Below are positions 1-39,111 of a stretch of 44,688 bases of DNA, piece after piece; the first letter of the stretch is position 1, and the number at the start of each line of letters is the position of its first letter. Source of the DNA: a phage. The stretch lies in the sequence record PX880098.1, one strand, 5' to 3'. Made by a program: the position numbers and the translations under genes. A model generated the notes under the pieces. It was not told the DNA's origin and ran no database searches. It saw only the letters and a program-made list of their open reading frames with translations.

Positions 1-1227
1 ATGTTGCTTCTCCCCCACCAATACGAGCTATTGGCAGATACCACGACAAAGATAATCGGGCTGTGTTCCGGATTCGGGGGTGGTAAAACGTACAGTGCCG
101 CGCGTAAAGCGGTGCATCTGGCTCTTCTCAACCCTGGCGTAGACGGAATAATAACAGAGCCGACGTTCCCTCTGTTGGTGCAGGTTATGTTTCCAGAACT
201 TATGGCGGCGCTGGACTTCTTCGGCGTCAAATACAAGTTCAACAAGGTCGAGTCTATTTTTTATTGCGACATCAATGGCCAAACAACCCGTATTATTTGC
301 GGAAGCATGGAGAACTATCAGCGACTTATCGGTATAAACGCCGCGTGGTGTGTGTGCGACGAGTTTGATACCGCTAAGCAAGAAACGGCTTATGCCGCGT
401 ACATGAAGCTGCTGGGTCGTCTTCGCAGGGGTAACGTGCGTCAATTGGTAATAGTGTCCACCCCCGAGGGATTCAGGGCTATGTACCAGATATTCGTAAC
501 CGAAGCAGATGCCAGCAAACGGCTAATACGAGCGAAGACAACCGATAACTACCACTTGCCGGCAGACTACGTAGAGTCAATGCGCAGCCAGTACCCTGAG
601 CAACTCATAAACGCCTACCTGAATGGCGAGTTCGTAAACCTTACATCTGGGGTTGTGTATTACGGGTATCAACGGGGTAAATGTGAATCTAACGAAACTA
701 TTAAACCGGGTGAACCGCTATACATTGGGCAGGATTTTAACGTCGGCAAAATGGCGTCGTGCGTTTATGTAAAACGCGGTGCTGATTTTCATGCGGTAGC
801 CGAGTTGGTCGACCTTTTTGATACCCCTGATGTAGTTCGCGTTATCAAGGAGCGGTGGGCCGGGCATCATATAATTATGTACCCAGACGCCAGCGGACGT
901 AACCGTAAAAGCAACTCCGCTTCCACATCTGACATAGCTATCCTGGAGCAAGCAGGATTTGAGATTAGAGCTAAATCAAAGAACCCACCTGTGAAAGACC
1001 GTGTTGCCGCTAGTAACGCCGCATTTGAGAAAGGTAGAGTCTTTGTTAACTCGAAGGCTTGCCCAGCAACGACACGTGGGTTAGAGCAGCAGGCCTACGA
1101 TAAAAACGGTGAACCAGAGAAGAATGGTGTAATCGACCATATGGTTGACGCCGCGACATATTTGATCGCTTACGAGATGCCAGTAGTTAAACCTGTCATT
1201 AATATACCGGTTACTTTCGCTCTCTAA
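1..1227 (+). CDS. terL: terminase large subunit
   Basis: 408-aa ORF; Walker A P-loop GFGGGKT near the N-terminus; first gene of the head block, directly upstream of a portal-sized ORF; preceded by terS and HNH at the other window end. Confidence 0.8.
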   Translation: MLLLPHQYELLADTTTKIIGLCSGFGGGKTYSAARKAVHLALLNPGVDGIITEPTFPLLVQVMFPELMAALDFFGVKYKFNKVESIFYCDINGQTTRIICGSMENYQRLIGINAAWCVCDEFDTAKQETAYAAYMKLLGRLRRGNVRQLVIVSTPEGFRAMYQIFVTEADASKRLIRAKTTDNYHLPADYVESMRSQYPEQLINAYLNGEFVNLTSGVVYYGYQRGKCESNETIKPGEPLYIGQDFNVGKMASCVYVKRGADFHAVAELVDLFDTPDVVRVIKERWAGHHIIMYPDASGRNRKSNSASTSDIAILEQAGFEIRAKSKNPPVKDRVAASNAAFEKGRVFVNSKACPATTRGLEQQAYDKNGEPEKNGVIDHMVDAATYLIAYEMPVVKPVINIPVTFAL

Positions 1228-1375: not shown

Positions 1376-2845
1376 ATGTTAACTACGAACGGTCAGAATC
1401 AGGGTGTTAAAACAAAACACCGGGAATGGCTGCACCACTTCGATAAATGGCAGAAGGTACGCCACGCTCTGGAAGGCGACCTTATCCGCTATCTGCGCAA
1501 CGTCGGGAAGAACGAACCGGACCAGAAGTACGCCGCCCAGCGCCAGGAAGAATATGAGAATGGCGCTATCTGCTACAACTTCACTAAACGTACCCTGGCC
1601 GGGATGGTCGGCAGTGTCATGCGCAAAGATCCCGAGCAAATTATCCCTCCTGAACTGGAATACCTGTTGCGTAATGCCGACGGTTCTGGCGTCGGGCTGT
1701 GGCAGCACGCGCAGGACACGCTAATGGAGATTGACTCGGTGGGTCGTGGTGGCTTGCTGGTGGACGCGCCGGAGACAGCCGCAGCGACGGCGGCAGAACA
1801 GAACGCAGGATTATTAAACCCGGTCATCGCATTCTATACCGCAGAGAACATCATCAACTGGCGACTGACACGCATCGGTTCCGTTAACCGCGTGACGATG
1901 GTCGTGCTACGCGAAGTATGGGAATACTCAGAACCCGGCGCAGAGTTCGAAACCAAGTTCGGTGAGCAGTATCGCGTCCTTGACCTGATTGACGGCCGTT
2001 ACCGCCAGCGCATTTACCGCTTCGATGCCGAAGGTGGTGCTCAGGACGAAGTAATCGAAATCTTCCCGGAACTGGGCGAACAGTTACGCGGCAAAATCCC
2101 GTTCACGTTCATTGGGGCTAGCAACAACGACGCTACTATCGACGATGCCCCTTTGCTGCCGTTGGCGGAGCTTAATATTGGGCATTTCCGCAACAGCGCA
2201 GATAATGAGGAATCCAGTTTCGTTGTAGGGCAACCCACTCTGTTCATCGCCCCTGGCGAGAACATGAGCATGGAGCAGTGGAAAGAAGCTAACCCACACG
2301 GCGTGCGTATGGGGTCACGTTCAGGCCATAACATTGGTTACGGCGGCAATGCGTTTCTGGTTCAGGCCGAAGAGAATAATCTCGCCAAACAGAACATGCT
2401 GGATAAAGAGAATCAGGCTATCCAGATTGGCGCGCAGCTTATCACCCCGACGCAGCAAATCACCGCTGAATCCGCCCGCCTGCAACGCGGCGCTGATACT
2501 TCAGTTATGGCGACAATCGCACGTAACGTAAGCATGGCGTATACCGATGCGTTGCGCTGGGTAGCGGCGATGCTGGGGATGCGTGAAGGCACAGAGATTG
2601 AGTTCAAGCTGAATATGGAGTTCTTCCTGCAACCAATGACCGCTCAGGACCGAGCACAGTGGATGGCAGACATTAACGCCGGTTTGCTGCCCGCGACTGC
2701 TTATTATGCTGCGTTGCGCAAGGCGGGTGTAACTGACTGGACAGATGAGGACATTCAGAACGCTATCGAGGATACACCGCTGCCGTTAGGTGCGGTTACT
2801 CAGGTAGCGGGAGAGATTCCGCAGTCGGCGCAGCAACAGGAGTAA
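1376..2845 (+). CDS. portal protein (putative)
   Basis: 489-aa ORF immediately after terL and before a Mu F-like head morphogenesis gene; size and position typical of portal; no motif confirmation. Confidence 0.65.
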   Translation: MLTTNGQNQGVKTKHREWLHHFDKWQKVRHALEGDLIRYLRNVGKNEPDQKYAAQRQEEYENGAICYNFTKRTLAGMVGSVMRKDPEQIIPPELEYLLRNADGSGVGLWQHAQDTLMEIDSVGRGGLLVDAPETAAATAAEQNAGLLNPVIAFYTAENIINWRLTRIGSVNRVTMVVLREVWEYSEPGAEFETKFGEQYRVLDLIDGRYRQRIYRFDAEGGAQDEVIEIFPELGEQLRGKIPFTFIGASNNDATIDDAPLLPLAELNIGHFRNSADNEESSFVVGQPTLFIAPGENMSMEQWKEANPHGVRMGSRSGHNIGYGGNAFLVQAEENNLAKQNMLDKENQAIQIGAQLITPTQQITAESARLQRGADTSVMATIARNVSMAYTDALRWVAAMLGMREGTEIEFKLNMEFFLQPMTAQDRAQWMADINAGLLPATAYYAALRKAGVTDWTDEDIQNAIEDTPLPLGAVTQVAGEIPQSAQQQE

Positions 2846-2849
2846 AGAA

Positions 2850-2869
2850 AAGGCCCCGTTATGGGGCCT
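2850..2869 (-). terminator. intrinsic terminator for the counter-oriented 71-aa gene
   Basis: AGGCCCC-GTTA-TGGGGCCT hairpin; on the minus strand it is followed by TTTTCTTT. Confidence 0.5.
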
Positions 2870-2876
2870 AATAACG

Positions 2877-3092
2877 TTATACGCCGTATTTTATGAAGTC
2901 GAAAGCCCATTGTGTCGGTCTGTATTCAACCCCATTCCCGTCGTCGACCATTACAAGAAAACCCTTATCCATTAGTTTTCTAATTGTGCGGTCCCCTTGC
3001 TGAAAGCTAGTGAAATGTGAGTCGTTTTTGAAGGTATAGCCATGTTTAATGGCTTCTTCTGTTGTTTTCTTCTCTAATTTAGTTAACTTCAT
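2877..3092 (-). CDS. hypothetical protein (counter-oriented moron, 71 aa)
   Basis: Only minus-strand ORF inside the plus-strand head block; visibly AT-rich; own promoter (3121-3149), GAGGA SD and own terminator. Confidence 0.6.
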   Translation of the reverse strand: MKLTKLEKKTTEEAIKHGYTFKNDSHFTSFQQGDRTIRKLMDKGFLVMVDDGNGVEYRPTQWAFDFIKYGV

Positions 3093-3120
3093 TTCTTTAT
3101 ATCCTCGTTTCGATAACTGA

Positions 3121-3149
3121 ATAGTACCCTATTATATTGGTGTCTGCAA
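3121..3149 (-). promoter_or_regulatory. sigma70-like promoter, family B (TTGCAG-N17-TACTAT)
   Basis: Minus-strand reading TTGCAGacaccaatataatagggTACTATTCA; 17-nt spacer; contains ATAG-N4-CTAT; upstream of the 71-aa gene. Confidence 0.55.
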
Positions 3150-3193
3150 ATATTATTTTTATGCGTTACACTGGTGATACTACAGGAGGGCCT

Positions 3194-4237
3194 ATGAGCT
3201 TACTTACATCCCTAATCAGCCACCAGATATGGCTGCAACGCACCGCATCCGGTGAAGTGAAAGACCTTGCGCCGTTTCTTCAGGAAATGCGGGACGAAAT
3301 CAAACAGCAGGTGCTGTTATTCGGTGACGACGGGCGAAGCACCGCGCGGTTGAATAAATTGTTACGCGACCTTGAAGAAGCACTGACCGGGATTACGGAC
3401 GACTGGCAGACAAAGCTGGCAGAAGACCTCAAAGAACTGGCAGCGTACGAGGCCGAGTGGAACGTAAAGACACTGACAGCCAACGTTAACGCGGAATTTG
3501 TTACGCCTACTGCCGAGCAAGTGTGGGCCGCCGCCGAGTTTCAACCTCTGTCACTAAGTGACAAGCCTGTCGATTTCACCAAGCTGATGTCTGGTTGGGG
3601 TGAAACGGAGGTGGCGCGCCTGGTAACTGGCGTTAAGATGGGCTTTGTTCAAGGCAAGACTACACGGCAGATTGTAAAAGAAGTAGTCGGTAAAGGCGGG
3701 CTGGCTGACGTATCGGAGAAATACGCAGCTACGGTAATCCGCACCGCGCTGTCTCACGTGTCCAATGAAGCACGCAACGAGACGTACCGCCAGAACGACG
3801 ACATCATCGAGAAGTATGAGTGGGTGTCAACGCTGGACAGCCGTACCAGTACGATTTGCAGAGCCCGGGACGGAATGACGTGGGAAATTGGTAAAGGGCC
3901 AATGCCCCCAGCCCATCCGAATTGTCGGTCGTGCACGGCCCCGGTAATCAGTTCAGAGTTCGACTTCCTCGATAAAGGTGCAAAACGTGCGGCTAAGGGT
4001 GCGGACGGGGGTACTCAGGTTAGCGCAGACACAACCTATTACGAGTTCCTGAAACAACAACCGGCATGGTTTCAGGATGAAGCACTCGGCCAGGTTCGGG
4101 GTAAGATTTTCCGCAACAGCGGTATATCACCGGAAGAGTTTCGCGTAATATCTGTAGATGGTTTCGGGAATCCGCTCACGCTTAAGCAGATGGCGGAACT
4201 CGATAAACGTGTTGCTGATTATCTGAAAGGGGAATAA
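3194..4237 (+). CDS. head morphogenesis protein (Mu gpF / SPP1 gp7-like)
   Basis: Follows portal; C-terminal region with PMPPAHPNCRSC resembles Mu F-like minor head proteins; start chosen at ATG 3194 after GGAGGG; listed ORF begins at TTG 3137 inside the promoter. Confidence 0.6.
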   Translation: MSLLTSLISHQIWLQRTASGEVKDLAPFLQEMRDEIKQQVLLFGDDGRSTARLNKLLRDLEEALTGITDDWQTKLAEDLKELAAYEAEWNVKTLTANVNAEFVTPTAEQVWAAAEFQPLSLSDKPVDFTKLMSGWGETEVARLVTGVKMGFVQGKTTRQIVKEVVGKGGLADVSEKYAATVIRTALSHVSNEARNETYRQNDDIIEKYEWVSTLDSRTSTICRARDGMTWEIGKGPMPPAHPNCRSCTAPVISSEFDFLDKGAKRAAKGADGGTQVSADTTYYEFLKQQPAWFQDEALGQVRGKIFRNSGISPEEFRVISVDGFGNPLTLKQMAELDKRVADYLKGE

Positions 4238-4698
4238 TGATGGGCTTTTTCAAAGTAACTGATGTGCCGTCGCGTCGTGTAGTCCAGTATGCCCGTGTGT
4301 CTGGCTCTAGAGAGAACGTGGTGTTTATTGAGGATGAAAGTGTACTAGGTACGCCAGTAGACGATATGCCGTTTGCGGACAAGACAGGTATCGCTTTACC
4401 CGCGGCAGGTATGCTTTACGAGATTCCGTATCTGGCGGACGCTGGTGACGTGTATTTCTCTGTGCAACCACAGGACGTTGAACTGGCAGACGGCAGCGCA
4501 ACTATCACTGTCGAGGTTAAGGCTGGTAAAGTGCCGTACGCTCTGACCTGGTACAAAGACGGTAGGGAAGTGGTTAATGCACCAGAAGAGGCTTTGTCTC
4601 TGACAGTTAATGCTGTTGGCGAATACTTCGTTAAAGTTACTGATGCCGATGGTGTAGAGGCTGTCAGCAAAGCGGCGAAGGTTACTAAGCCAGAATAA
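4237..4698 (+). CDS. Ig-like domain structural protein (possible decoration protein)
   Basis: 153-aa ORF; TAATG overlap with upstream gene; Ig-like signature YALTWYKDGREV...GEYFVKVTD. Confidence 0.5.
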   Translation: MMGFFKVTDVPSRRVVQYARVSGSRENVVFIEDESVLGTPVDDMPFADKTGIALPAAGMLYEIPYLADAGDVYFSVQPQDVELADGSATITVEVKAGKVPYALTWYKDGREVVNAPEEALSLTVNAVGEYFVKVTDADGVEAVSKAAKVTKPE

Positions 4699-4816: not shown

Positions 4817-4996
4817 CCACCTGAGCTTGTGAAGTATGAACAAGCGACCGCGGCGCGGGCAGGTAACGGAGCGGGACGTAAGTCCTGAGTGTAGTTACGC
4901 TGACGCGTTCGGAAGGGCCATACTCTATTGCTTGTGTAAAAAGGAACGGGTTTACTGAGATTACGCCGTTTCTATGTTTAAATGATAAGGACTAGC

Positions 4997-5023
4997 GCCC
5001 CGCTTTATGGCGGGGCTTTACTT
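4997..5023 (+). terminator. hairpin with T run upstream of the spanin start (terminator or attenuator)
   Basis: GCCCCGC-TTTATG-GCGGGGC followed by TTTACTT; lies between the 4788 promoter and the ATG at 5042. Confidence 0.45.
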
Positions 5024-5041
5024 ATCGAGAAAGGGGGAAAC

Positions 5042-5428
5042 ATGAATCTTAAAGCAACTGTCGTAGCGGGGGCATGTTTCATCATCCTGCTATACGCACA
5101 CGGCTACTATCAGTACCGCGTAGGCTGGACCGAAGGCCGGGCGAATCTCGTTTCGCAGCAACAGCAGAAAGCACAGGCTGAGTTAGCGAAGAAAACACAA
5201 CGGCAGCAGCAGGACGAATCAAAGGCCGCTGGTGCTGACAACGAAGGCAAGACGAAATCAGAGGTGATTACCCGTGAAGTCGTTAAGTACATTAAAACGC
5301 CTGGCCGCAGCGTGTGCACTTTCGACGATGCTCGCGTCCTGCTCAAGTCCCGCGCCGTCGCCAACGCCAATTCCATCCCCGGATACGACGATGATGCAGC
5401 CGCCGTGCAAACTGGCAGCGCCAAGTAG
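5042..5428 (+). CDS. i-spanin (Rz-like)
   Basis: N-terminal TM helix (ATVVAGACFIILLYAHGYY), Q/K/A/E-rich coiled-coil periplasmic region; SD AAGGGGGAA before ATG 5042; contains an overlapped lipoprotein ORF. Confidence 0.6.
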   Translation: MNLKATVVAGACFIILLYAHGYYQYRVGWTEGRANLVSQQQQKAQAELAKKTQRQQQDESKAAGADNEGKTKSEVITREVVKYIKTPGRSVCTFDDARVLLKSRAVANANSIPGYDDDAAAVQTGSAK

Positions 5429-5537
5429 CGACGCCGATGAGGATTTGGCTATCGACGTTCAGAACGCCGAATGCGTACGGCAATTGCGCCTGAAAGTGTT
5501 CATGTTGCAGGATTACGTGAGGAATATTCTGGAATAG
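5274..5537 (+). CDS. o-spanin (Rz1-like lipoprotein), overlapped with the i-spanin gene
   Basis: Signal peptide with lipobox LASC, proline-rich mature part SSPAPSPTPIPSP; starts in another frame inside the Rz-like gene and extends beyond its stop. Confidence 0.55.
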   Translation: MKSLSTLKRLAAACALSTMLASCSSPAPSPTPIPSPDTTMMQPPCKLAAPSSDADEDLAIDVQNAECVRQLRLKVFMLQDYVRNILE

Positions 5538-5619
5538 TTGCCTTGCATGTTGGAATAATTTATTCTTGACATGTAAATCCGGGTGGCCCGGGTTCCAACG
5601 TCCAGGGGACATACTGACT

Positions 5620-6324
5620 ATGAATCGTTTTTTACGTTATCCGTTCCAGGAAGAAGCTGGAGCAGAAGATAAATCTGGTGGCGGTGATGCGCCGAAAATG
5701 TTCACCGCTGAAGAAGTTCAGGCGCTGATTGAGAAAGAAGTCGCCGGGCTTAAGGCCAATCAGGAAGCATTGCTGGCGGAGAAGAAAGAAGCCGCCCGTA
5801 AAGCAAAAGAGGCTGAAGAAGAGCGGCAGCGCGCACACCAGGAGGCGTTAAAAGCCGCTGGTAAGATGGACGAGTTCGAAAAGACGATTCGTAGCCAGTA
5901 TGACCCGGTGTTAGCCGAGAAAGATGGTCGCATCTCCAGAATGGCAGAGCGCATCCTCGGCAGCGAACGTAAAGCGGTGCTAGGCTCTTTCGCGGGCGAC
6001 TTTATTACCCCGGAAGCAGTAGACATTCTTGCTCCGTTCGTTAAGACTGAGTTCGAAGGCGATGACGTGGTTACTAAGTTTGTCGGTGCAGATGGCAATG
6101 TAATCACGACTGACCCGGAACAGTTCCGCAAATACCTGCGTGAACACAAAGCGTTTTCGCATTTGATTAAAGCAAATGCAGCTTCCGGCGGCGGGGCTTC
6201 CGGCAGCAAAGGCGGCGGGGCCGCACCAGCGTTTAAAGACATGAGTGAAGCGGAGCGCATTGCTCTGTACGAATCGAACCCTGCCGAATTTGAACGGCAA
6301 CTTAAAGCCCTGAGGAAAAAATAA
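5620..6324 (+). CDS. scaffolding protein (putative)
   Basis: Directly upstream of the major capsid gene; highly charged alpha-helical sequence (KEAARKAKEAEEERQRAHQEALKAAG); start at ATG 5620 after AGGGGA. Confidence 0.6.
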   Translation: MNRFLRYPFQEEAGAEDKSGGGDAPKMFTAEEVQALIEKEVAGLKANQEALLAEKKEAARKAKEAEEERQRAHQEALKAAGKMDEFEKTIRSQYDPVLAEKDGRISRMAERILGSERKAVLGSFAGDFITPEAVDILAPFVKTEFEGDDVVTKFVGADGNVITTDPEQFRKYLREHKAFSHLIKANAASGGGASGSKGGGAAPAFKDMSEAERIALYESNPAEFERQLKALRKK

Positions 6325-14016: not shown

Positions 14017-14208
14017 TCACTTCTCTTTGACATTCGAGTTGCACGCCCAGATTAAAATAAATATCCATGGCAGCAGAACCCAGCCAAGAAACATATTAGC
14101 CATGAATATCGCCAGTTTCGCTTTATGACCCCGCATATGGGCCACTAAAAACGGGATAAAATAAACTAAAACGATAATGATTAAGAAGAACATAGTAATG
14201 CCGGTCAT
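14017..14208 (-). CDS. superinfection immunity (Imm-like) small membrane protein
   Basis: 63 aa, two TM segments; YFIPFLVAHMRGHKAKLAIFMANMFLGWVLLPWIFILIWA matches the Imm superinfection-exclusion family pattern; AT-rich. Confidence 0.6.
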   Translation of the reverse strand: MTGITMFFLIIIVLVYFIPFLVAHMRGHKAKLAIFMANMFLGWVLLPWIFILIWACNSNVKEK

Positions 14209-14249
14209 GCTGTAGCTCCTGTTTGAGTTAACATTGTTAGTGTAAGTGA

Positions 14250-26570: not shown

Positions 26571-26858
26571 CTAACTATAATAGTATGCTATTAGGGTGTC
26601 AACCTGTTTTATAGAGCCAACCACAAAAACATTCGCACCACGTTTACGCATCCGCTCGTGTTCACGTAACTGGTGCGGGTCTGGCTTCGTGTTTTCGTCT
26701 TTCTTCACCTCGACGAACCAGACTATGCCGCCAGGGAGAATTACCAGCAGGTCAGGAGCGCCGGAACGTCCTTCGTAGGAGAGCTTACGAACGAGGCCAC
26801 CCAGGGCCTCGAATCGCCCCTTCGCATATTTCTGTACGCGCCCCTCAGGCGTACTCAT
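26571..26858 (-). CDS. VRR-NUC domain nuclease
   Basis: PD-(D/E)xK signature GAPDLLVILPGGIVWFVEVKK; SD GAGAGGGG upstream. Confidence 0.55.
   Translation of the reverse strand: MSTPEGRVQKYAKGRFEALGGLVRKLSYEGRSGAPDLLVILPGGIVWFVEVKKDENTKPDPHQLREHERMRKRGANVFVVGSIKQVDTLIAYYYS
26574..26602 (-). promoter_or_regulatory. sigma70-like promoter, family A (TTGACA-N17-TATAGT)
   Basis: Minus-strand reading TTGACAccctaatagcatactatTATAGT with AT-rich upstream region; contains ATAG-N4-CTAT. Confidence 0.6.
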
Positions 26859-32584: not shown

Positions 32585-32800
32585 ATGCAACCATCTGAGC
32601 TAGGTATCCGTGTAGAACAACGCCGCAAAGAACTCGGCATCTCCCAGCGCCGTCTGGCTGTCCTGGCCGGCGTTTCCCAGGGCGCGATTAACCAACTGGC
32701 TCTCGGGGTAACTCAGGACGTCCGCCCGGCAACTCTGTTTAAACTGGCGGAAGTGCTGCAAGTAGACGCCAAGTGGCTGGCGTTCGGTGAAGGGGCTTAA
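32585..32800 (+). CDS. XRE-family HTH transcriptional regulator (Cro-like)
   Basis: 71 aa; HTH ISQRRLAVLAGVSQGAINQLALG; only plus-strand gene in the replication block, divergent from a family A promoter. Confidence 0.7.
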   Translation: MQPSELGIRVEQRRKELGISQRRLAVLAGVSQGAINQLALGVTQDVRPATLFKLAEVLQVDAKWLAFGEGA

Positions 32801-37950: not shown

Positions 37951-37981
37951 TCATTTACACAAACGAGAGGAGAGACAGAAG

Positions 37982-38131
37982 ATGGTTACTTTGATGGTTA
38001 TGGAATTCGAAAACAGCGTAGCAACTTACCGCGAGATGACTATGGCGCAGGCGTATCACCTGGCCTCAAACGGCAACTTCTACAAGGCGCAAATCATCAA
38101 TGAGTTCGGGGTAATTGACTATGAATTTTAG
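37982..38131 (+). CDS. small protein (49 aa), absent from ORF track
   Basis: ATG preceded by the conserved 21-nt leader AAACGAGAGGAGAGACAGAAG; 49 uninterrupted codons. Confidence 0.5.
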   Translation: MVTLMVMEFENSVATYREMTMAQAYHLASNGNFYKAQIINEFGVIDYEF

Positions 38132-38393
38132 CAGCTACACCGTGACCGTTGATTTTGAGGGGCTGGAGTTGCCCCTCCCAAACAACTATCGGTATATAAC
38201 CCGTGACCGTTTCGGTTTTATTCAGGGGTGGCGGGACAAACCAACAGACACTGAGTTCGGGATGTCAGGCGGAGAAGAGTTGCCGATTACTTTCGGGCAT
38301 CAGAGTAGTAATGAAGAACTTAAAACTGTGATTCGTAAGTACCGCCGCCGCGGTAACACCGGGCTTATAGCTATAACCGGCGTTGTTGAGTAA
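38121..38393 (+). CDS. hypothetical protein (90 aa)
   Basis: ATG 38121 overlapping upstream stop; listed ORF begins at TTG 38115. Confidence 0.5.
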   Translation: MNFSSYTVTVDFEGLELPLPNNYRYITRDRFGFIQGWRDKPTDTEFGMSGGEELPITFGHQSSNEELKTVIRKYRRRGNTGLIAITGVVE

Positions 38394-38412
38394 ACGAGAG
38401 GAGAGACAGAAG

Positions 38413-39111
38413 ATGAGTAACAAAAACGAAGTATTCGAGTACCTGATTGACCAGTTACGGCAGCACGTAAATAGCCACCCATACAAGCAACAGTGCGAAG
38501 ACCTGGCGCATGAGGTGCAGTCACTCAAGAATCAGTTACGTGATGCGTCGGCGCTGGTGGCGGAGTTGCAGGAAGACAACATTAAGAAATCCGACCATAT
38601 ATCACATCTGACCGGGCAATTGTCCGCGTATCGCAATGATGCGTTGCGCTTTCAAGCGCAAGTCGGGGACCTGGTAAAACGACTGGCTAAGGCCACTGGT
38701 GACGAGTCTGTGCAGATTAAGGAGTTGACGCTCGCGCTAGATAGTTTAGATAACGAGGTTATGTGTCTTCGTTCAATCGTTTACCTGGACCCTAAAGGCG
38801 CGATTGGGTACATCCGGCGGGCAAATAGTGCAATGACTGACACCCTGCGCCGCCAATACCTTAGCAAAGCACTTGAGGAACTCGGATGTAAGGATGCGCC
38901 AGAACAATCCGGTTGCCGAAAGGAAGACGTGCAGGAATGTGCGCACGATTGGGTGCTAGATGAAAAAGGGGACTACTTCATTTGCGCTAAATGCGGTAAG
39001 CAAGAATCGGAATTGAGCGATTGCCAACACGCTAATACCGTCGGTTTGCGCAAAGGCTTTGCGCCGGGTTTTACTAAAAAGTGTCTTGATTGCGGGGCTA
39101 AACTGAAATGA
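38413..39111 (+). CDS. hypothetical protein with N-terminal coiled coil and C-terminal zinc-ribbon-like Cys pairs
   Basis: Preceded by identical 21-nt leader; Cys pairs CAKCGK and CLDCGAK near the C-terminus; 232 aa from ATG 38413. Confidence 0.55.
   Translation: MSNKNEVFEYLIDQLRQHVNSHPYKQQCEDLAHEVQSLKNQLRDASALVAELQEDNIKKSDHISHLTGQLSAYRNDALRFQAQVGDLVKRLAKATGDESVQIKELTLALDSLDNEVMCLRSIVYLDPKGAIGYIRRANSAMTDTLRRQYLSKALEELGCKDAPEQSGCRKEDVQECAHDWVLDEKGDYFICAKCGKQESELSDCQHANTVGLRKGFAPGFTKKCLDCGAKLK

Follow-up and report, generated by a model that had tools for sequence, protein, structure and literature searches.

A moron-type gene for a predicted winged-helix protein in a slot of exchangeable cargo at the portal–MuF junction of a Kagunavirus-type phage

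The moron concept derives from comparisons of lambdoid phages; classic morons are a feature of temperate phages, in which the prophage expresses them. Exchange of small genes is also documented for virulent phages: PeSL cassettes of T4-type phages carry small non-essential genes that are swapped between related virulent phages (Arbiol et al., 2010, PMC2839356; Comeau et al., 2014, PMC4122927). The locus described here has features of both. As in a moron, a single extra gene separates two genes that are direct neighbours in close relatives; its base composition deviates, a terminator is predicted downstream and the promoter of its own is likewise a prediction, and, judging from sequence comparison, the gene appears to be dispensable for virion production. 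As in the PeSL cassettes, the exchange boundaries of the variable genes coincide with conserved, repeated regulatory motifs. The best explanation as a whole, to which a probability of about 0.7 is assigned, is a moron-type cassette in a Kagunavirus cargo-exchange slot, with non-late expression and a small DNA-binding regulator as its product.

The DNA analysed is phage sequence record PX880098.1, and “the window” refers to this whole stretch of 44,688 nt. It represents the complete or near-complete genome of a Kagunavirus-type siphophage (Guernseyvirinae), a coliphage from a virulent group. An 801-bp query spanning the locus retrieved 158 phage records at 80–95% identity, nearly all of them Escherichia/Salmonella Guernseyvirinae. 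Between the genes for the portal and the Mu-F-like head morphogenesis protein (MuF), a gap of 348 bp holds a single minus-strand ORF (Table 1). A preliminary description made from the sequence had reported a 71-aa minus-strand ORF at this junction, inside an otherwise plus-strand head operon and much more AT-rich than its neighbours. The ORF was borne out at its coordinates, and composition analysis agrees: the ORF and the whole junction both have a GC content of 39.4%, compared to 55% in the portal gene, 53% in the MuF gene and 50.7% in the window. For GC, the ORF ranks in the bottom 1.8% of 216-nt windows, and the whole junction in the bottom 0.5% of 348-nt windows; the window-wide minimum over 216 nt (32.9%) falls at the accessory locus. 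An Rfam search of the whole window gave no match. Elsewhere in the head region, an embedded Rz/Rz1-like spanin pair at 4982–5537 is situated between the Hoc-like and scaffold genes, away from other lysis genes; this location is kept in Kagunaviruses and is therefore ordinary for the group.

Table 1. Features of the accessory locus and its surroundings, and cargoes found at the same junction in relatives (window coordinates where given).
Feature	Position	Strand	Basis or remark
Large terminase	1-1227	+	Left of portal
DUF4055 portal protein	1376-2845	+	Left neighbour of accessory gene
Intrinsic terminator of accessory gene	2843..2869	-	Terminator scan and RNA folding; predicted
Accessory gene	2877..3092	-	ORF, 71 aa, ATG start; predicted stand-alone MarR-like winged helix-turn-helix protein
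Shine-Dalgarno GAGGAT	3106..3101	-	8 nt 5' of accessory-gene ATG; read from sequence
Overlapping promoter-like site TCGATA-N17-TATATT	3110-3138	+	Called by generic sigma-70 scan; directed at head morphogenesis gene
Palindromic core AATAGTACCCTATT (AATAG-N4-CTATT)	3120..3133		One of 8 promoter-associated window sites
Family B sigma-70-like promoter of accessory gene	3149..3121	-	Family resemblance and conservation; predicted
Conserved right-hand slot end	3150..3193	+	Reaches AGGAGG ribosome-binding site and MuF ATG (3194)
Mu-F-like head morphogenesis protein (MuF)	3194-4237	+	Right neighbour
Ig-like protein	4237-4698	+	Relatives' annotation: Hoc-like head decoration
173-aa cargo, phrog_3007	portal–MuF junction	-	fBC-Eco01, SHAK7693 (read); phage 26, Shashou (span and annotation)
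217-aa cargo, KilA-N match E 3e-4, just under Pfam cut-off	portal–MuF junction	-	EcoPhCCP1
93-aa Cys-rich cargo, no family match	portal–MuF junction	-	CR01, 22664BS2
94-aa cargo, phrog_1273	portal–MuF junction	-	K-02, LM08P1
Three small genes, one matching phrog_16707	portal–MuF junction	-	SXAU_B4

The gene proved to be accessory and variable at this junction. None of the 158 related Guernseyvirinae records contains it, coverage of the junction query staying below 80% in every record, and a tblastn search of 50,697 phage records for the 71-aa protein gave no Guernseyvirinae match. In phage Golestan, where the sequence was read, portal and MuF genes are separated by a 69-bp spacer that contains a hairpin and the remnant TATAGTATGCTATTA. 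Most Kagunavirus isolates among the matches listed have junction spans that fit a spacer of ~70 bp, Golestan being the one in which the sequence itself was read; the spans of Bas70-76, K1H and K1ind1-3 are equal in size to that of Golestan. A minority of isolates carry minus-strand cargo at exactly this junction, comprising at least five unrelated types besides the 71-aa gene (Table 1). Three observations concern these relatives themselves: the 173-aa cargo (L001, L002) is annotated inconsistently, as “DNA polymerase III sliding clamp” or as “RusA-like resolvase,” with Pfam support at only E 0.006; the gene 22664BS2_018 (L005; 129 aa) seems to be over-extended at its N-terminus, through the promoter block; and SHAK7693 (OR594180.1) is classed as Autographiviridae/Kayfunavirus in the public record, while its sequence is Kagunavirus-like.

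When eight junctions were aligned, likeness was confined to the hairpin behind the portal gene and to a promoter and leader block on the right, and the cargo in between was unrelated. The shared right-hand block comprises the last ~80–100 bp, i.e., promoter, leader and MuF ribosome-binding site, and its terminal part (3150..3193) is 90–99% identical among cassette-bearing Kagunaviruses, regardless of cargo. The block is common to all cargo types except that of EcoPhCCP1, which shares the hairpin only and has a different promoter of its own with a different palindrome. Relatives with other cargo have a hairpin of the same GGCCCC type here, and a comparable one occurs in the single empty junction that was read (Golestan). 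Since the promoter is shared by relatives with other cargo and the hairpin is found even in an empty junction, these signals are attributes of the slot, and what is exchanged is the coding sequence alone. As far as sequence comparison goes, the slot is thus a pair of fixed regulatory ends with exchangeable content, and the promoter is not foreign, being one of the phage's own repeated types. A literature search found no description of the portal–MuF junction or of the 71-aa protein family.

The hairpin itself has the properties of an intrinsic terminator. On the minus strand, the stem-loop 2869..2851 (AGGCCCC-ATAAC-GGGGCCT) has seven pairs, six of them G-C, around a 5-nt loop and is followed by TTTTCTTT, which together were called by the terminator scan; the U-tract is UUUUCUUU at 2850..2843. 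The folding energy of the terminator RNA is -14.5 kcal/mol (z = -3.3), and 0 of 200 shuffled sequences fold equally well. Read on the plus strand, the same stem-loop (2851-2869) precedes UAAUAACG, which is not a U-tract, and the terminator scan gives no call; the hairpin therefore serves the minus-strand gene. The hairpin terminator that had been proposed for the 71-aa gene is accordingly retained as a prediction, on the strength of the minus-strand call and the fold.

The proposal of a family B promoter for the gene fared less evenly. The minus-strand site has a -35 element TTGCAG (3149..3144), a 17-nt spacer and a -10 element TACTAT (3126..3121). Three further family B sites occur in the window, at 14249 (-), 36108 (+) and 37938 (+), all upstream of co-directional genes; they read TTGCAC-N17-TACTAT-TCA and are followed by a similar AAACGAG(A)GGAG leader. 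All four sites have in common an AATAG-N4-CTATT core and the sequence TACTAT-TCA at the -10 element, and the leader of the accessory gene, AAACGAGGA, is similar to those behind the other family B promoters (AAACGAGAGGAG). However, a generic sigma-70 scan leaves the minus-strand site uncalled, as ~8 of 12 consensus positions are matched, which is below the threshold, and calls an overlapping site on the opposite strand instead. That plus-strand site is unlikely to drive the head morphogenesis gene and is probably incidental: its -35 element falls in cargo-specific sequence and is not conserved among relatives. The minus-strand -35 element (CTGCAA on the plus strand), in contrast, has been conserved in five relatives whose junction holds different cargo. 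The promoter was assigned to the minus strand because of this difference in conservation and because of the family resemblance. What stands of the original proposal is a predicted promoter that lies on the correct strand, belongs to a four-site family and is conserved in relatives, with a score below the threshold of the generic scan.

The palindromic core extends beyond this promoter family. With its 10 specified bases, AATAG-N4-CTATT would be expected ~0.04 times in 44.7 kb, yet eight copies are present (3120, 14249, 26579, 30047, 32496, 36108, 37780 and 37938). At 26579, 30047 and 32496, it fills the spacer of a second promoter type, TTGACA-N17-TATAGT. The palindrome could possibly be the operator of a phage regulator. 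It was also considered as an operator of the 71-aa protein itself, which was rejected: the same promoter and palindrome are found in phages without the gene, and there are seven other sites in the window. A gene at 32585-32800 (+), which encodes a 71-aa core HTH_3/XRE protein, is located at a divergent pair of AATAG-N4-CTATT sites and is the obvious candidate for a regulator that binds them.

Family B promoters are found ahead of other small or metabolic genes in the window. The one at 14249 precedes an Imm_superinfect gene, behind which genes for an exonuclease, a polynucleotide kinase and a dNMP kinase follow; another precedes a PAPS-reductase-like gene. The Imm_superinfect gene (14017-14208, minus strand; 63 aa, AT-rich; Pfam E 1.7e-13) lies directly behind its promoter and, ahead of the exonuclease and kinase genes, is also small and accessory-looking. 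Downstream of a family B promoter, an exact 24-nt repeat, AAACGAGAGGAGAGACAGAAGATG, which comprises leader, ribosome-binding site and start codon, begins two successive small genes (37961-37984 and 38392-38415).

The constancy of the signals and the variability of the cargo could also be read the other way round, namely that selection keeps the regulatory signals and that the ORF is a passenger: leftward promoter and hairpin would then tune read-through in the late operon via convergent transcription. The conservation of the promoter block and hairpin across most cassettes fits this idea, as does the empty Golestan junction, in which hairpin and remnant are retained. However, most of the listed isolates are viable without the promoter block at the junction, and the ORF is intact and highly conserved in five independent contigs as well as in distant phage groups, with a conserved fold. 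Moreover, homologues in other phages use the promoter types of those phages. A role of the signal pair with the ORF as a mere passenger is therefore judged to be highly improbable.

Five uncultured Guernseyvirinae contigs (L022, L023, L025, L010 and L011) carry the same gene at the corresponding junction, which allowed gene and flanks to be compared. In the three Kagunavirus-like contigs (L022, L023, L025), the gene is 98.6% identical to that of the window at the nucleotide level, compared to 89–91% for the portal and 87–88% for the MuF gene (Fisher p = 6e-8 for gene versus flanks in L022). In L010 and L011, which are more distant Guernseyvirinae, the gene is 87% identical and the flanks 67–77% (p = 2.5e-7). 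The similarity of the gene thus greatly exceeds that of either flank, also at synonymous sites, which indicates that the 71-aa gene was exchanged laterally in recent times, after the lineages had diverged. Some of these contigs have peculiarities of their own. In L010 (MN855815, metagenomic), a Lar-type restriction-alleviation gene (3501-3704) lies between the accessory-gene promoter and the head morphogenesis gene (2427-3504), and the latter was called as two pieces of 147 and 210 aa, although it is intact in the near-identical L011. L025 (IMG/VR) has a portal gene that is 91% identical to the window and a terminase gene that is only 67% identical, which places a mosaic joint in or near the 149-bp gap between terL and portal (1228-1375). 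In L022, a NUMOD3 (homing-endonuclease-type) gene at 5304-5909 lies immediately upstream of terL.

Beyond Guernseyvirinae, the closest homologues (67–72% amino acid identity) are encoded by Asteriusvirus jumbo phages, including gp306 of phage 121Q, and by ~140-kb Klebsiella/Salmonella phages; more distant ones occur in phages of Xylella, Bordetella and Burkholderia. The gene for 121Q gp306 sits in a long array of small genes, with a TTGACA-type promoter-like motif on either side, and the homologue in KP12 (Vequintavirinae) is a lone gene opposed to the direction of its neighbours. In KP12 (L021) and in L014, the sequence TTGACAcGCCCCAGGGAATGGGGCATACT just downstream of the homologous gene combines a -35 element, a GC hairpin and a -10 element in one PeSL-like composite. 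All six gene copies that were measured are AT-rich (29–44% GC). When 185,579 genomes of bacteria and archaea were scanned with two peptide patterns, by which distant prophage homologues could be missed, no close relative was detected; the family was seen in virulent phage genomes and in viral and metagenomic contigs. Horizontal acquisition, which had been suggested from signals and composition, is thus corroborated by a gene that is conserved beyond its flanks in other contigs and whose nearest other homologues belong to unrelated phage groups. Overall, sequence comparison shows a gene that has been exchanged laterally, appears to be dispensable and occupies a slot that is used repeatedly.

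These data also bear on the idea that the ORF encodes a conserved component of head assembly or the virion, or is a chance antisense ORF. Only its position within the head gene cluster speaks for this. The gene is absent from all 158 related isolates, and lies on the opposite strand with predicted signals of its own. Its homologues in unrelated phages are surrounded by small genes, away from any recognisable structural module, and its product is predicted to adopt a winged-helix fold. Family-wide conservation and the confident fold together exclude a chance ORF, and a virion component is hardly credible. The preliminary description had named conservation at this position in all relatives, together with a virion role, as the finding that would speak against an accessory gene; what was found is a gene missing from relatives and a winged-helix prediction.

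Pfam, NCBIfam, PHROGs and PADLOC searches with the 71-aa protein retrieved no significant family, with 0 families in PADLOC (defence proteins, the one defence-related library searched) at E up to 1 and 0 in NCBIfam. A word-indexed protein search detected eight close relatives, and an exhaustive HMM search of 1.84 billion proteins yielded 36 representatives (50% clustering), among which four long proteins that match a short repeat-like stretch (residues ~13–58) were set aside as spurious. The AlphaFold model of the 71-aa protein (pLDDT 93.6, pTM 0.81) shows, in order, a helix (5–17), a short strand, a loop with the conserved motif, a second helix (30–42), a β hairpin (46–59) and a final helix (61–69), and thus contains a predicted winged helix-turn-helix core. 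Profile matches are weak and concordant (AspA, AdcR, MarR_2, PadR, DUF4364 and HTH_45): the AspA match of the 71-aa protein is marginal (E 0.005 over 33 residues), DUF4364 is matched by 10 of the 36 family members (best E 4e-6), though not by the 71-aa protein itself, and one to three of the 36 have sub-threshold matches to MarR or MarR_2. The closest structural matches of the model are nearly all DNA-binding regulators; a BFVD fold search returned uncharacterised viral proteins only. The family is basic (median pI 9.2, mean net charge +2.7), with a basic residue at the position of K16 in 89% of members and at that of R35, in the recognition helix, in 64%. Judged by fold and charge, the protein is most likely a small transcription regulator that would bind specific DNA sequences.

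Some properties of the protein fit less well with canonical DNA binding. Family members have an acidic wing tip throughout (DDGNG in the 71-aa protein), and the protein has Asp42 and Phe64 at positions that are Lys or Arg in 83–89% of the family, which makes canonical contacts by wing and backbone less plausible. Moreover, the most conserved motif of the family, K-x-G-F-T-F-x-G-D-S-x-F (residues 16–27), is modelled as a loop and is located where the second helix of an HTH normally is, not in the recognition helix. An alternative is therefore that the winged helix binds protein instead of DNA and that the small product, made early, inhibits either a host factor or a protein of anti-phage defence; the gene would then be anti-defence cargo in a variable slot. 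The acidic wing tip, the loss of two otherwise conserved basic positions and the placement of the top conserved motif outside the recognition helix argue in this direction, as does the Lar-type restriction-alleviation gene that adjoins the accessory gene in the slot of L010. High sensitivity to restriction-modification systems has been reported for Kagunaviruses, as has a block of some of them by cryptic prophages of K-12 (PMC11990801), so that anti-defence cargo would be useful to them. Against protein binding stand the overall basic character of the family, the predominance of DNA-binding regulators among the nearest structural matches and the empty PADLOC search. Protein binding is thus considered unlikely, although it is the main rival of a DNA-binding regulator, which remains the preferred reading.

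For this preferred reading, the following sequence of events can be envisaged. The slot is bounded on the left by the GC-rich hairpin just past the portal stop codon, and on the right by the ~80–100-bp block that combines a leftward sigma-70 promoter of the phage's own type with the MuF ribosome-binding site. The AT-rich cargo probably entered by recombination from a wider pool of small genes of virulent phages. Host RNA polymerase would then transcribe the accessory gene from the family B promoter, against the head operon, and halt at the predicted terminator of the gene. As family B promoters also precede genes of nucleotide and DNA metabolism, the accessory gene is probably expressed together with non-late, non-structural genes. 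Since the hairpin lacks a U-tract on the plus strand, late transcription from the portal side probably reads through in antisense and dampens expression of the accessory gene at later times. The product would be a minimal MarR-like winged helix-turn-helix protein without dimerisation helices, which might confer a conditional advantage, e.g., by silencing a promoter of the host, a prophage or a competing phage, and which would have no role in virion assembly.

A more far-reaching version of this idea is that the protein is a portable factor for counter-defence or inter-phage competition, which acts early and either silences a specific promoter of a host, prophage or rival phage or blocks a defence protein. 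This version is speculative and regarded as quite unlikely. If true, recombination at the conserved boundaries formed by promoter and terminator would spread such a factor among unrelated virulent phages (Kagunavirus, Asteriusvirus and Vequintavirinae). In Kagunaviruses, the portal–MuF slot would then serve as a small island of anti-defence genes, which would agree with the Lar-type gene alongside in one contig.

Irrespective of function, the locus provides a clean, well-bounded example of accessory-gene exchange in small virulent siphophages: a fixed slot in which promoter and terminator can be reused and in which at least six different cargoes alternate. Kagunaviruses have been considered attractive models for synthetic biology by the authors of the BASEL collection (PMC11990801), and the portal–MuF slot could serve as a landing site for their engineering. 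The winged-helix family and the other slot cargoes are reasonable candidates for screens for host takeover or anti-defence.

Compared with described proteins, the 71-aa protein is not a member of the MarR family in the strict sense (PF01047/PF12802): it is half the size of MarR regulators such as PDB 2rdp and 5h3r (71 versus ~140 aa; 7–17% identity), is devoid of the N- and C-terminal dimerisation helices, falls below the curated Pfam thresholds and has an acidic wing tip. It shares its build with small stand-alone winged-helix proteins such as AspA of an archaeal plasmid (PDB 4rs8, 5k1y) and a PhiH1 repressor-like protein (3b73), which belong to the same class of 70–100 aa with a winged helix and one C-terminal helix. 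However, the match is marginal, as noted above, and the accessory locus offers no partition or repressor context.

With regard to the locus as a whole, PeSL cassettes are built around one composite of promoter and stem-loop, whereas here promoter (3121-3149) and hairpin (2851-2869) are ~250 bp apart and flank the gene. Classic morons differ from it in other respects: the Kagunavirus group is virulent, the promoter is of the phage's own lytic-cycle type, and promoter and hairpin are part of a reusable slot and did not arrive with the gene. Although its protein family is uncharacterised, the locus is an ordinary phage moron that leaves the current understanding of such genes unchallenged.
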